From sequence record NC_054925.1: 64,000 nucleotides of DNA. One strand, 5' to 3'. Origin of the DNA: Escherichia phage vB_EcoM_NBG2. Positions 30,312-35,506 of the stretch are shown piece after piece (within the stretch, counting starts at the first letter, position 1; each line of letters begins with the position of its first letter). The translations under genes were made by a program, and so were the position numbers. The notes below the pieces were generated by a model. The model ran no database searches. It had not been told where the DNA came from and worked only from the letters and a program-made list of their open reading frames with translations.

Positions 30312-31994
30312 TTAAACCATTACAGTAAATCGACCAACTTTCTTCATTTGAAGATGCTGACCATATTCTTGTGGGTCATGGTCTTTATGCGAAATTATAA
30401 AAACATTAGTGTTTTTCATTGAATTTATAATATTAGCTACACCTTTAATACCTTCGGCATCAAATGACCCATCAAACACTTCATCAAGAATTAATGTACT
30501 AATACTAACACCAGATACAATAGAAGCAATATCACGCCAAGTAAATAAAAGAGCAATATCGATTCGTGCCTTTTCGCCTTCACTAAATGAAGCATAACTA
30601 AAATCTTCACGACCACGGGATTTAATTGTCTCATTAAATTCTTCATCTAATGTAAACACATAATCCGCTTCCATTATTTTAAGATAATGGTTAATCTGCT
30701 TATTAAATAATGGAATGTACTTTTTAATAATAGCACCTTTAATACCAGAATCTTTGAGCATATCAGTCAAAATTCCTCTGTGGTATTTTTCCATTACTAA
30801 ATTAGTTTTTGTCTTAACAATTTTATCAAGTTCTTCTTGAAGCAGTGCTATTTCATCAGCATGGTCAATAAACTCAGATGATGCTTTTTCTATAGCCGCT
30901 TTAACTTTTTTAGCTTTATCTACCGTCGTGATTAAGGATTGCTTTTTATTGCGAATATCATTTGCCAGCGTCTGCTGGGTTTTAATATTATCTCGGTATT
31001 CATCAACAAGAACTTTTAAATTATCACGATGTGTTGAAAGCTGTTCAAAAGAATGCGTGCATTCAGAAATTTTATCTTTAATTTTAGAAACAACTTTATC
31101 ACCGGAACTTAATTGTGACAAACAGGTTGGACATAATCCACCTTCGTGATACATATTAATGACTTTATTATACGAGTCAATTTTTGATTTAATTAAAAAT
31201 GCTTCTTGACCGATTTTATTAAATGCATCAGTCGGGTCTTCATCCAAAACAATATTAACTAATCTTTCATTAGCTTCTTCTATTTCCGATTTTAGCGTTC
31301 TAGCTTCTTTTGCCAAATCATCGTACATATTCTGCAGACGAGTAAGGTTGTCACCAGACAATTTTTTCTGGCGTTCAACATTATCATTATATATTTTAAT
31401 TTGCTGGATAATACTATCTTTTTTAACATCAAGCACTTGGTTTTGTGAATTTAATTCACGTATTAGTGCTTTATTAAGCTTATCCATTTCAGCTAATGTT
31501 CCTACCTCGAGCAGGTCTTCGACGAGTTTTCTTCTTGCAGGAGTGGATAGGCCCATGAAAGGGGTATATCCAGCCGTGCCGAGTACGACGATCTGTTTGA
31601 AACTGGCGTATGACATTCCGATAAGCTGTTCAAATTCTGCTTGGAAATCTTTACTGCTGGCAGATTCATTAAGACGTGTACCGTTAACGGTGATTTCGAA
31701 AACATTTGGTTTTTGTCCTCTTTTGATATAGTACTTTTTCTCATCATATTCCATCCACAGTTCAACTAAAAGCTCTTTCTTATTTGTGCTGTTTATTAAT
31801 TGGCCTTTCTTTACATCACGAAATGGCTTGCCAAAAAGCCCAAATGTGATGGCTTCTAACATAGTAGACTTACCACCGCCATTTCGTCCAGTAATAAGAG
31901 TTTTTTGAACCTTATCTAATTGAATGTCAATAGGGTTTCCACCTACTGACATTATATTTTGATACCTAACTCGGTTTAGTTTAAAATTCTTCAC
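30312..31994 (-). CDS. 46: recombination nuclease ATPase subunit (gene 46, Rad50/SbcC-like)
   Basis: 560 aa; Walker A GRNGGGKST, central coiled coil with CPTC hook-like motif, C-terminal DEVFDGSFD. Confidence 0.85.
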   Translation of the reverse strand: MKNFKLNRVRYQNIMSVGGNPIDIQLDKVQKTLITGRNGGGKSTMLEAITFGLFGKPFRDVKKGQLINSTNKKELLVELWMEYDEKKYYIKRGQKPNVFEITVNGTRLNESASSKDFQAEFEQLIGMSYASFKQIVVLGTAGYTPFMGLSTPARRKLVEDLLEVGTLAEMDKLNKALIRELNSQNQVLDVKKDSIIQQIKIYNDNVERQKKLSGDNLTRLQNMYDDLAKEARTLKSEIEEANERLVNIVLDEDPTDAFNKIGQEAFLIKSKIDSYNKVINMYHEGGLCPTCLSQLSSGDKVVSKIKDKISECTHSFEQLSTHRDNLKVLVDEYRDNIKTQQTLANDIRNKKQSLITTVDKAKKVKAAIEKASSEFIDHADEIALLQEELDKIVKTKTNLVMEKYHRGILTDMLKDSGIKGAIIKKYIPLFNKQINHYLKIMEADYVFTLDEEFNETIKSRGREDFSYASFSEGEKARIDIALLFTWRDIASIVSGVSISTLILDEVFDGSFDAEGIKGVANIINSMKNTNVFIISHKDHDPQEYGQHLQMKKVGRFTVMV

Positions 31995-32254: not shown

Positions 32255-32441
32255 TATCTAAAATGTTGAAGTTAAAAGATACAGCCCAATCTGTACAGAC
32301 CGTAACCTTTTTAATACAATTATCTTCAACCTCTAGCGGTTCAAACCAGTATTCAATAGTTTCTTTATGCCCAATATCATCTTTTACTTCGCATTCAAAA
32401 TGCTGACTCATCATAACATTTTTAAATTCATCAAAAGTCAT
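32178..32441 (-). CDS. hypothetical protein
   Basis: 87 aa ORF, 4-nt overlap with gene 47. Confidence 0.45.
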   Translation of the reverse strand: MTFDEFKNVMMSQHFECEVKDDIGHKETIEYWFEPLEVEDNCIKKVTVCTDWAVSFNFNILDNDTPKSLQDMAVSCIKDAYCEVFDI

Positions 32442-33457
32442 TGTGTTGCCTCTACATATAACTGATTTGCATATTGAATAAGTGCTTCACGGTCAGAATC
32501 AGTGATGTCTGGAATTGCATTAATGTATTCTTCCATCAATGTCTGAAGCGATTGAACTTCAACTTCTTCACTGTCATCTGACTCGACAGAGTTATCAATC
32601 TTTGACACAACTCGTAATGAATGCACAACTTTTTCTAGTTCAGATTCGAACTTCGTTAGATTTTTGTCTACTTCAGTTACTATAACACGTACTGATAGAT
32701 TTGTAAAATCTTTATAGTCAATTTTTCCTTTAAATGGATAATGAATTCTACGATGCCAGGTAGTATTGTTTGGAATAAATTCCATTCGTTCTGTTTCTGT
32801 ATCAAACATCCAGAACCCACGAGGGTCATTCTCGTCACCTGCAGTTAGTGTCCATGGTGTCCCAATATATCTGACGTTTGCAGCCTCAGAAATAGTATGG
32901 AAGTGACCAGACCACACTTCTTTATAAGTCTTAAGGAAATCGGGTTCAAGACCGTGAGATTTCATTCCTTTATAAAAATAAAATCCATTCAGTTCCCAGT
33001 GACCAACACAAAAAGAAGCAGATGAAGTTTTGATGTGTTCAAGAATTTCACCAGTGTTTTCTTCACACATCCAAGGAATCAAATCAATCAAACACCCGTC
33101 AAACTCTACTGTAGTAGGCTTATCATATACTTTAACATTAGGATATTTAGCCAAAAGCTCAGTAGAGGCATTTGGATGCATTACATTTTTATAGTGGAGA
33201 TCGTGATTTCCTACAATAGTGTGTAATGTAATTCCAGCATCATCAAGCGTTTGAACTATTTCACGGGCAAACTCCATAGTTTTATGTGTGATCGCTTTTC
33301 TCACATCAAAAATATCACCATATTGAATCCAGGTAGTAATTCCATTTTTCTTAGAATATTCTATTGCTTGTTTAATTCCATCAATTTGAATACCGCGAAT
33401 CCACTCATCATCAGCTTTAACGCCTAAATGCCAATCACCCAAGTTTAGTATTTTCAT
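32438..33457 (-). CDS. 47: recombination nuclease subunit (gene 47, Mre11/SbcD-like)
   Basis: 339 aa; phosphoesterase motifs GDWHLG, GNHD, GHWE. Confidence 0.85.
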   Translation of the reverse strand: MKILNLGDWHLGVKADDEWIRGIQIDGIKQAIEYSKKNGITTWIQYGDIFDVRKAITHKTMEFAREIVQTLDDAGITLHTIVGNHDLHYKNVMHPNASTELLAKYPNVKVYDKPTTVEFDGCLIDLIPWMCEENTGEILEHIKTSSASFCVGHWELNGFYFYKGMKSHGLEPDFLKTYKEVWSGHFHTISEAANVRYIGTPWTLTAGDENDPRGFWMFDTETERMEFIPNNTTWHRRIHYPFKGKIDYKDFTNLSVRVIVTEVDKNLTKFESELEKVVHSLRVVSKIDNSVESDDSEEVEVQSLQTLMEEYINAIPDITDSDREALIQYANQLYVEATQ

Positions 33458-34058
33458 GGTGTCTTTTCCATCCTAATTTAGCTGCTTTTGAAACTAGTTC
33501 TTTAATTTTTCCTTTTGTCCATTCAGGACCAGGAGGTTCATGACATAACATTTGCTTAACTCCGTTATTATACCATTTTTTACCTTTATTATGTGATGAA
33601 GCTTTAAATTTATTTGACCTTCCTTTTACATAACCTTCTGGAATATAAGGCAAAAAGGCAGATTTTCCTGTTAATGGATCATGTGAATGTATATTTCCTT
33701 TACAATTATGAGAACCATATAATGGATGATTTTGTCCTTTATTATCTCTTCCAAATGAACCTTTTGGAGCAGCATATGACATATTAAAGAATAATGGATT
33801 TTTAACTGCATCATGCAATCGTTGATAATATAACTCGCATTTAATAGCTTCTTCACGCGTATCAAATTTAGCTAAAATGCATGAATCAAATAAGTGAGGA
33901 TTATCTGAAAGCTCTTTATTATAAATTTTCTTATACTTTTTAGATAAAACTGAACCATGATATCCAGCTAAATGCCTATCTAAAGACGTAGATCCAATAT
34001 AAAAAGGAGGAAGTTTATCTCCACTATATATTGTTAAATAAGTTATATATTTTTTCAT
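33435..34058 (-). CDS. GIY-YIG-like protein, possible homing-endonuclease relative
   Basis: 207 aa; N-terminal YITYLTIYSG...FYIGSTS...R motif and basic K/N-rich C-terminus; overlaps gene 47 start by 23 nt. Confidence 0.4.
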   Translation of the reverse strand: MKKYITYLTIYSGDKLPPFYIGSTSLDRHLAGYHGSVLSKKYKKIYNKELSDNPHLFDSCILAKFDTREEAIKCELYYQRLHDAVKNPLFFNMSYAAPKGSFGRDNKGQNHPLYGSHNCKGNIHSHDPLTGKSAFLPYIPEGYVKGRSNKFKASSHNKGKKWYNNGVKQMLCHEPPGPEWTKGKIKELVSKAAKLGWKRHHENTKLG

Positions 34059-34218
34059 ATATCAAGAACCGTCATTGAAATGCAAAATAAAATTATTGAA
34101 ATAAACCCATCTGGTGTGCTAAAGAACCCAATCCAACATGCTCTAGTGAATAGATAAAATGCAAGAAAAAGTATCACATATCCAAGAAATATCATTATAT
34201 CAAACTCCGCATAAAGCT

Positions 34219-34236
34219 AAAGGGCCGAAGCCCTTT
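34219..34236 (-). terminator. hairpin (UUCG loop) downstream of alpha-gt
   Basis: AAAGGGC-CGAA-GCCCTTT. Confidence 0.5.
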
Positions 34237-35437
34237 ATTTTGTAATAATGTCAAACTGTTCTTTAAAACAGAAGCTTGAATCTTGGTGCTGATACAAAAA
34301 TTCATATGCTTTTTCTCGCTCACGGTCATAAAGAGCTCGGTCAGATGACAGTTCTTTAATACGTTCAAACGTTGATTCCATATCATTTTCATCAAACCAA
34401 ATGATACCGCTATCATGCGAGGTCAAAGGAGTATTATCAACACGGAATTTTAAATTTTCGCCAGTAGATTTCCAAAATACCGGAATTGTTCCACATGCAC
34501 CAAGCTCGAGATGAGTATATTCTAAAGAACGTTGTAGATATTTTTTGTCCAACTTACTCAGCTGATAACCAAATCCGGATTTACTCATGCGTTCAAGCAT
34601 TTCGCTATTTACATAACGATCAAGAATTTGCGTTGGCAAATTAGGAGCAATTTTAATTTGGTCTACTTGATGAAGACGATAATACTCGTATGGAATTCCT
34701 TTTTCTTTAATAGGAATGAACGCTGGAGAACGTTCCAGACCTTCCATAATAGTACTTAGTCCTGCAGGTTTAAGATGTTTTTCATGAAAATCAAACATCT
34801 GATAAAAACCTTTCCATGTAGTCGTACGACCAATCCAACGGTTAACATTCATGTTAATTTCAGAAACATCTTTCCAGTAGGTTGACCGAACCTTCGCAAT
34901 ATCCATAGGAGGCTGAAAGTTATATACTGTCGGTGCTTCTTCAATATCATCAAACAGAGAAACAGTTTCTGGATACCATTCTTTCATCAGAACTTTATTA
35001 AAATCACCATTATCAGAATGACTAAAAATAACATCAGCTCGACGAACAGTTTCTTCTAATCCCAAATTTCGACGCAAAGAAAGAGAAGAATGGTCATGTT
35101 GATAAACTACAACACGAACAGAAGGTTTAATGTTATCAATAATTTTTTTATAGTTATTAATAGTGTCTTCTTCAACCGAAGTAGCAGGAACTGAATTGAT
35201 AATTAGAATATCACAATCATTTACCAGCTTAAGTGTTTTATCATATTCTTTTGCCAATAAAACCGGAATTGAAAATGATTTATAATCATGCGCGCAATTA
35301 CGAGTAAATGATTTATCTTTAGCATAAACCAAAGTTACTTCATGACCATTCTTAATAAACCAATCACGTTGCTCAAGAGAAAATTTAGTTACACCACAAC
35401 CTTCAAGACCTCGAGCCATAAAAATACATACTTTCAT
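34235..35437 (-). CDS. agt: DNA alpha-glucosyltransferase
   Basis: 400 aa; size and position as T4 alpha-gt; N-terminal glycine-rich GLEGCGVTKF. Confidence 0.8.
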   Translation of the reverse strand: MKVCIFMARGLEGCGVTKFSLEQRDWFIKNGHEVTLVYAKDKSFTRNCAHDYKSFSIPVLLAKEYDKTLKLVNDCDILIINSVPATSVEEDTINNYKKIIDNIKPSVRVVVYQHDHSSLSLRRNLGLEETVRRADVIFSHSDNGDFNKVLMKEWYPETVSLFDDIEEAPTVYNFQPPMDIAKVRSTYWKDVSEINMNVNRWIGRTTTWKGFYQMFDFHEKHLKPAGLSTIMEGLERSPAFIPIKEKGIPYEYYRLHQVDQIKIAPNLPTQILDRYVNSEMLERMSKSGFGYQLSKLDKKYLQRSLEYTHLELGACGTIPVFWKSTGENLKFRVDNTPLTSHDSGIIWFDENDMESTFERIKELSSDRALYDREREKAYEFLYQHQDSSFCFKEQFDIITK

Positions 35438-35464
35438 TTAATATCCTCTTTGTTTTGGTTTATT

Positions 35465-35490
35465 TTACCAAAAATTTATAAAGCAATATA
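35465..35490 (-). promoter_or_regulatory. MotA-dependent middle promoter candidate for alpha-gt
   Basis: TTGCTTTAT box followed by TATAAAT on minus strand. Confidence 0.4.
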
Positions 35491-35506
35491 GGAGCCGAAG
35501 CTCCTA
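35487..35506 (-). terminator. hairpin (UUCG loop) upstream of alpha-gt
   Basis: ATAGGAGC-CGAA-GCTCCTAT. Confidence 0.45.

Follow-up and report, generated by a model that had tools for sequence, protein, structure and literature searches.

A probable Seg-type homing endonuclease gene inserted at the start of recombination gene 47 in Escherichia phage vB_EcoM_NBG2

What is an open reading frame (ORF) of 207 amino acids (aa) doing between genes 47.1 and 47 of a T4-like phage, at a junction where T4 itself has nothing, and does its product still cut DNA? The question is raised by a 64,000-nucleotide stretch of Escherichia phage vB_EcoM_NBG2 (NC_054925.1), analyzed here as a whole and termed the window, in which this ORF (33435-34058, minus strand, with its ATG at 34058 and its TGA at 33435-33437) immediately precedes gene 47 (32438-33457, minus strand), which encodes an Mre11/SbcD-like recombination nuclease subunit and is the presumed target gene. 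The initial annotation had likened the protein to the Seg-type homing endonucleases and had left it between an active enzyme and a domesticated one. The analysis described here argues, with good confidence, for a functional free-standing GIY-YIG homing endonuclease gene of the T4 Seg type, closest to SegE. The gene, referred to below as seg, is very probably active and mobile, and its target is most likely the 47.1/47 junction or the first part of gene 47. This type of element is well known, and the new feature is its locus, empty in T4, where it adds a Seg-family endonuclease next to the genes of the gp46/47 recombination nuclease.

A GIY-YIG protein of the Seg type

The window comes from a Tequatrovirus and has the T4 gene order 46, 46.1, 46.2, 47, 47.1, and a-gt around the ORF, the surrounding 4 kb being 98.6% identical to Escherichia phages vB_Eco_Some and TadeuszReichstein. 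The ORF is intergenic and has the same minus-strand orientation as both of its neighbors. Its ATG overlaps the TGA of 47.1 as ATGA, and its last 23 nucleotides (nt; 33435-33457) overlap the start of gene 47, an overlap that had been given exactly at the outset. The locus had also been described as the 47/alpha-gt junction, which holds for the gene 47 side, but the upstream neighbor is the small ORF 47.1 (34055-34195, minus strand; 46 aa, a predicted membrane protein in the T4 annotation) and not a-gt. A chance ORF is ruled out by shuffling, as the longest ORF in 30 shuffled versions of the window was 150 aa and none reached 207 aa, by the 170 database homologs of the protein, and by the ratio of non-synonymous to synonymous divergence (dN/dS) considered below.

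The sole Pfam family matched by the protein is GIY-YIG (PF01541), over profile positions 2-74 of 78 (E-value 5.6e-4, 20.6 bits), and some homologs (e.g., P0064) have a precomputed match to PF01541. The PHROGs database returned phrog_10820 (“HNH endonuclease”, E-value 2e-94) and phrog_314 (“homing endonuclease”, E-value 4e-17), and NCBIfam gave no meaningful match. An AlphaFold2 model, based like the conservation figures below on 53 homologs, has a mean predicted local distance difference test score of 85.8, with values above 90 over residues 1-95. In a Foldseek comparison of this model with the PDB, the catalytic domain of I-TevI ranked first (1ln0/1mk0, probability 0.99, target-normalized template modeling score of 0.6), while among predicted viral structures there were 59 fold matches at an E-value of 1e-3 or lower, those with names being mostly GIY-YIG, Seg-like, or homing endonucleases. 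The GIY-YIG fold that had been suspected from the N-terminal sequence KKYITYLTIYSGDKLPPFYIGSTSLDRH, which was quoted correctly for the 207-aa protein, is therefore present according to both a near-threshold profile match and structure comparison. The link to I-TevI is visible by structure comparison and Pfam only.

These results also bear on the names under which the gene is deposited, as public records call its product “putative homing endonuclease”, “HNH endonuclease”, or “hypothetical protein”. That RefSeq/PGAP records and PHROG 10820 are right in naming it an HNH endonuclease has a virtually nil probability, since what speaks for it is the database names, whereas no HNH family in Pfam matched even at an E-value of 10 and no HNH structure stood above the GIY-YIG nucleases in the PDB fold ranking. 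The HNH identity is thus refuted by the fold and profile results and the name is a widespread mis-annotation, as is “hypothetical protein”, which the GIY-YIG assignment corrects. The HNH name has spread to many records, such as NC_054919, NC_054920, and NC_054911, and the gene has been left unannotated in several others (the RefSeq record of GiZh, and EO1).

The nuclease domain comprises residues 1-98. The tyrosine of the GIY motif is found in T-I-Y11, on a strand of the model formed by residues 4-11, and aligns with Y6 of I-TevI and with the Seg tyrosine, while the YIG motif corresponds to F19-Y20-I21-G22 on the strand of residues 19-25. E75 and N92 do not vary among the homologs, and conservation is at least 90% at Y11, Y20, I21, and G22. 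E75 and N92 align with the equivalent residues of the Seg proteins and of I-TevI (E75 and N90), the glutamate being one column off relative to I-TevI. In addition, the motif G-Y33-x-G35-S fits the Seg signature D-G-Y-M-G-S-G in an alignment with SegA-G and I-TevI.

The remainder of the protein (residues 99-207) is predicted to be a basic DNA-binding region, with two beta-hairpin repeats at about residues 121-146 and 159-183 and a terminal helix at 191-202. Its basic character, which had been recognized earlier, is evident from an isoelectric point of 10.0 and from 21 lysines plus arginines versus seven aspartates plus glutamates. Many relatives are longer (250-310 aa) and have an extra C-terminal region of ~60 aa that resembles a helix-turn-helix, a tail present in family members of 267-311 aa. 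Other family members share the nuclease domain, at ~70% nucleotide identity, and have different C-terminal halves, and the member in Yersinia phage TG1 is at a quite different position in its record. Such a modular pattern, in which a common nuclease domain is joined to varied C-terminal halves, is usual for GIY-YIG homing endonucleases.

When a hidden Markov model (HMM) of the family was compared with the T4 proteins, SegE scored highest, with 41.9 bits over its full length, followed by SegG (20.7), SegC (14.4), SegA (11.4), SegD (10.1), SegB (9.1), SegF (5.7), and I-TevI (0.7), and this ranking, together with the signature G-Y-x-G-S common to SegE and the present protein, bears out the proposed Seg-type assignment. 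SegE is a free-standing GIY-YIG homing endonuclease of T4 that is encoded between inh/hoc.1 and uvsW. It resembles the present protein in its N-terminal GIY-YIG domain with G-Y-x-G-S, in its length (205 versus 207 aa), in a pair of repeats in the C-terminal half with the pattern W-x-N-N-G ... P-x-G-[FW]-x-K-G, modeled as beta-hairpins (residues 123-136 and 161-172) in the seg protein, and in the position of its gene directly upstream of, and in the same orientation as, a gene of DNA metabolism. SegE cuts the hoc.1-uvsW region of phages that lack segE and homes with co-conversion of the flanks (PMC2330249). The two proteins differ, however, in that their identity by BLASTP is only 27% over 193 aa, in that the presumed target is 47.1/47 here and uvsW in the case of SegE, and in that the present ORF overlaps the downstream gene by 23 nt. 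SegA, B, C, D, F, and G belong to the same class and share its motifs, but they are found at other loci and have other C-terminal DNA-binding modules. Their genes are intergenic, have the orientation of the host genes, and frequently combine the lack of a promoter with overlapping start and stop codons (PMC2988022). I-TevI of the T4 td gene is encoded in an intron, whereas the present gene is free-standing, and the present protein has neither zinc finger nor helix-turn-helix. No paralog of seg was found by the family HMM among the 256 ORFs of at least 60 aa in the window.

A polymorphic insertion carrying an intact gene

Alignment with T4 revealed a clean insertion of 601 bp (33458-34058), exactly between the stop codon of 47.1 and the ATG of gene 47, which is lacking in T4, T2, T6, RB7, RB14, RB32, and RB51. 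It is associated with a 7-nt direct repeat, ATGAAAA (minus strand), the left copy of which (34052-34058) is the start of the seg ORF and the right copy (33451-33457) the start of gene 47, and in T4 it is the left copy that is the gene 47 start. Because of this flanking repeat the insertion boundaries slide by 7 nt. The position of the insertion means that the seg ORF uses the translation start context of gene 47 in T4, and that the upstream context of gene 47 is now the 3′ end of the insert. The G+C content of the insert is 29.6%, compared with 34.3% for the window.

The proposal to examine related phages for the presence or absence of the gene at this junction was well founded, as the site is polymorphic. 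The insertion is present in 67 of the 502 records that match the 1.8-kb region with at least 90% identity, and the ORF itself is found at 95% identity or more in 67 records of the phage collection. The records without it, which include T4, T2, T6, RB7, RB32, and RB51, align in two pieces and span 1200 instead of 1801 nt. Seg is carried by about one in eight T4-like phages (~13%) and is absent from about 87% of close relatives, and its movement would explain a 601-bp indel among the Tequatroviruses as well as the local mosaicism of their gene 47.

Homologs with 60-76% identity are also located directly upstream of gene 47 in other genera of the Tevenvirinae, with their 3′ ends overlapping its start. 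These are a “homing endonuclease” of Klebsiella phage KP185 (Jiaodavirus; 202 aa, 17-nt overlap with gene 47) and the homologs at the IMG/VR loci L024 (205 aa, 14-nt overlap) and L027 (251 aa, an ATGA overlap, and a third hairpin repeat). The three differ from the present gene in the C-terminal tails of their 202-251-aa proteins and in host genus. As in Tequatrovirus, most relatives of each lack the gene, with a homolog in one of the five loci of the L021-L024/L030 group, and KP185 being the only Klebsiella record, among the matches listed, that aligns through the insertion.

The gene appears to be maintained as a protein-coding sequence. All seven of the Tequatrovirus copies that were fetched are intact, at 624 nt, and they fall into two allele classes separated by 17 synonymous versus 4-5 non-synonymous differences (dS about 0.15, dN about 0.008). 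The resulting dN/dS of about 0.05, measured over the whole 207 codons, indicates purifying selection on the protein and not a decaying remnant. The few copies that appeared defective have other explanations: an internal deletion of seg in KNP1 and KNP5 was rejected, as it is a run of N marking an assembly gap, ESh34 has one extra A in a run of A in a record labeled UNVERIFIED, and the copy in GiZh is intact and merely unannotated. Hence no solid degenerate copy is known from these records.

It is against this background that domestication has to be judged. If seg were an inactive or domesticated remnant, it would no longer cut and would be kept only as the carrier of the translation initiation region of the essential gene 47. 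The 3′ end of the ORF does supply the sequence upstream of the gene 47 ATG, with which it has its 23-nt overlap, and an overlap with gene 47 is kept in the other genera. The protein also lacks the C-terminal helix-turn-helix-like tail of its longer relatives, and host signals that are embedded in homing endonuclease genes are a known mechanism of retention (PMC2988022). However, selection of this strength covers all 207 codons and not the 3′ end alone, the catalytic glutamate and asparagine are invariant, and about 87% of close relatives express gene 47 without seg. This widespread absence, together with the apparent precise loss in about seven phages described below, argues that seg is dispensable and removable, and a remnant is considered very unlikely.

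For an active seg gene, a course of events can be proposed by analogy with SegA-G. The gene would have no promoter of its own and would be transcribed together with 47.1, 47, and 46, and its translation would begin at the initiation region used by gene 47 in T4. When a T-even phage without seg infects the same cell, the enzyme would bind DNA, through its basic C-terminal region, around the 47.1/47 junction and the 5′ end of gene 47, and the N-terminal GIY-YIG domain would then make a double-strand break. Recombinational repair from the genome with seg would transfer the 601-bp gene to the recipient, together with a stretch of gene 47 of variable length, while the genome with seg could be protected by the insertion splitting the site, by silent changes in codons 3-6 of gene 47, or by both.

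Silent changes and empty sites at the start of gene 47

The silent changes emerged from gap-free alignments of both flanks, 1400 nt each, in which eight loci with seg (seg+) were compared with 14 without it (seg−). Only three positions, nt 9, 15, and 18 in gene 47, show a fixed difference between the two groups, with nt 10 being near-fixed (0.88 in seg+ versus 0.07 in seg−). Together these four positions (nt 9, 10, 15, and 18 are 33449, 33448, 33443, and 33440 of the window) form a cluster in codons 3-6 (33440-33449, minus strand) in which every difference is silent. After ATG AAA, the window and all but one of the compared seg+ loci have ATA CTA AAC TTG (the exception has ATA TTA), whereas all of the compared seg− Tequatrovirus loci have ATT TTA AAT TTA. 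The remaining differences are shared polymorphisms, which implies that the flanks have been reshuffled many times with nt 9, 15, and 18 kept linked to the insert. A rise in the mean divergence between the groups is confined to the first 200-400 nt of gene 47 (0.080, versus 0.033 within seg+), and no comparable rise was found in the upstream flank. A one-sided haplotype of this kind would be expected if co-conversion had started from a break on the side of gene 47, and the changes in codons 3-6 may confer target-site immunity or, alternatively, be donor-derived flank.

That this haplotype of the gene 47 flank travels with seg could also be taken to favor an enzyme that is active but is mainly a weapon in competition, or otherwise of benefit to the phage, rather than purely selfish. 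Its possible roles would be the localized marker exclusion of the gene 46/47 region of a co-infecting phage, or recombination or amplification stimulated by double-strand breaks. Seg enzymes do exclude T2 and RB30 markers (PMC2330249), and SegB has recently been reported to promote the amplification of anti-defence loci (PMC13096335). On the other hand, no sequence feature separates a weapon from ordinary homing, the two not being mutually exclusive, and carriage by ~13% of relatives is not suggestive of a strong benefit. A mainly beneficial role is regarded as unlikely. For a homing endonuclease at this locus, the prediction is that, where seg+ and seg− T-even phages are combined in a cross or a cocktail, markers of the gene 46/47 region will be locally excluded.

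The seg+-type codons are also found at sites from which the gene is missing. A synthetic query of 72 nt, in which the end of 47.1 was joined directly to a seg+-type gene 47 start, matched eight records (seven phages) at 100% and in one piece, namely SHFML-26, BCPEco_001, BCPSen_003, PBM-1, Ec_YwIITB1, UGKSEcP1, and EPIMAM01. UGKSEcP2 matched at 98.6%, and 422 records, representing the T4-type site, matched at 90-95%. In the two such empty-site loci that were fetched, the first 200 nt of gene 47 have a divergence of 0.027 from the seg+ phages versus 0.082 from the seg− phages. The simplest reading of these sites is a precise loss of seg by recombination between the ATGAAAA repeats, and the empty allele left by such a loss is possibly resistant to cleavage. 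RB14 (locus L045, 1529-1546) has an empty site with an intermediate sequence, ATT CTA AAT TTA, that contains one of the four seg+-type changes.

Two observations on the same codons come from more distant phages. T4 (locus L002) has exactly the same first 29 nt in gene 47 (ATGAAAATTTTAAATTTAGGTGATTGGCA) as loci L014, L016, and L018 (positions 2501-2529), although the gp47 proteins of the latter three are only ~71% identical, an unusual degree of conservation for wobble positions at the presumed site of homing. In the group of L024, where gp47 is likewise ~71% identical, the seg+ locus itself (L024:2501-2520) has ATT CTT AAT ACG in codons 3-6 versus ATA TTA AAC ACA in the seg− loci L021, L022, L023, and L030, and the next 30 nt are almost the same. 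The pattern parallels that in Tequatrovirus, with a single seg+ locus on the one side.

These elements can be combined, tentatively, into a full homing cycle at the start of gp47, a reading that we consider possible rather than probable. The enzyme would recognize the first ~30 nt of gene 47, a very conserved stretch that extends into the codons for GDWHLG (codons 7-12, which we take to be metallophosphoesterase motif I), immunity would be determined by the three or four silent substitutions in codons 3-6, and the approximately seven phages with empty sites and seg+ codons would carry resistant alleles that arose by precise loss via ATGAAAA. The protein at stake, gp47, is part of the T4 resection nuclease that homing itself needs. 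If this is true, natural alleles that are susceptible, occupied, and empty but resistant would be at hand as a model of invasion, fixation, loss, and resistance in T-even phages. The natural series, made up of the T4-type susceptible site, the occupied site, the empty site with seg+ codons, and the intermediate of RB14, is what gives the gene its main value, as a means to study how free-standing homing endonucleases recognize their targets, how immunity to them arises, and how they are lost.

Several points weigh against seg being a functional homing endonuclease with this target. The Pfam score of the protein is just under the gathering threshold of 22.6 bits. Searches of PDB sequences, by phmmer with the protein and by hmmsearch with the 53-sequence profile, gave nothing relevant for the nuclease domain, and neither phmmer nor hhalign, the latter with the family alignment against the I-TevI sequence, found any similarity to I-TevI in this domain. 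The counterpart of the I-TevI Arg27 is ambiguous. The present protein has R28, in a helix of residues 26-30, where the family consensus has lysine, and R28 is not opposite R27 of I-TevI in the multiple alignment, in which T4 SegA-G likewise have no residue there. The present protein and its closest relatives are without the ~60-aa helix-turn-helix-like tail, and the literature yielded no account of a seg gene at 47.1/47. As for the linked silent changes, they may simply be donor flank that was carried in when the gene was originally acquired. They also alter the tail of the seg protein when read in the seg frame (from ...FKFR* to ...TKLG*), and their linkage could be the result of selection for that tail.

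Expression signals and neighboring endonuclease sites

Within the insertion, no promoter-like site exceeds what shuffling would lead one to expect, and the closest late promoter (TATAAATA) is far away. RNA structure around the translation starts of seg and gene 47 is not significant (z-scores of +0.3 to +2.1). Promoter-less cassettes with overlapping stop and start codons have been reported for several T4 seg and mob genes (PMC2988022).

A possible middle promoter of the MotA type, identified by eye, precedes 47.1 (34194-34221, minus strand) and consists of TTTAGCTTTA, a spacer of 12 nt, and TATAAT. The first of these elements presumably corresponds to the consensus of the MotA box. This candidate promoter is common to T4 and the window, and its −10 element, a perfect TATAAT (34194-34199), overlaps the ATG of 47.1. 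A transcript that starts from it would exclude the 47.1 start codon, and 47.1 may therefore serve in part as leader sequence to gene 47 (or to seg) instead of being a real gene. In the RB32 record, 47.1 was not predicted by GeneMarkS or Glimmer. Just after a-gt is a GC-rich hairpin (34218-34237) that is given as a terminator in the annotation of related records, and the candidate promoter comes right after it.

Two other sites in this part of the genome are similarly variable. Between 46 and 46.1, T6, SHFML-11, SHFML-26, and BCPEco_001 have a coding sequence of 855 nt (L031:1-595, L032:1-595, L036:1-595, and L043:2992-3072), which is annotated as “homing endonuclease” in SHFML-11 and SHFML-26. 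T2 has a shorter coding sequence (615 nt) at this position, and the window (31991-31994), T4, and RB7 have none, which makes this position, about 1.5 kb away from 47.1/47, a second polymorphic site for an endonuclease. Between a-gt and a-gt.2, T4 has the HNH gene mobB (L002:4886-5680), where the window has a spacer of 66 nt (35438-35503). With these insertions, the 46-55 region contains three alternative endonuclease sites, 46/46.1, 47.1/47, and a-gt/a-gt.2, which are occupied in different combinations among the phages.
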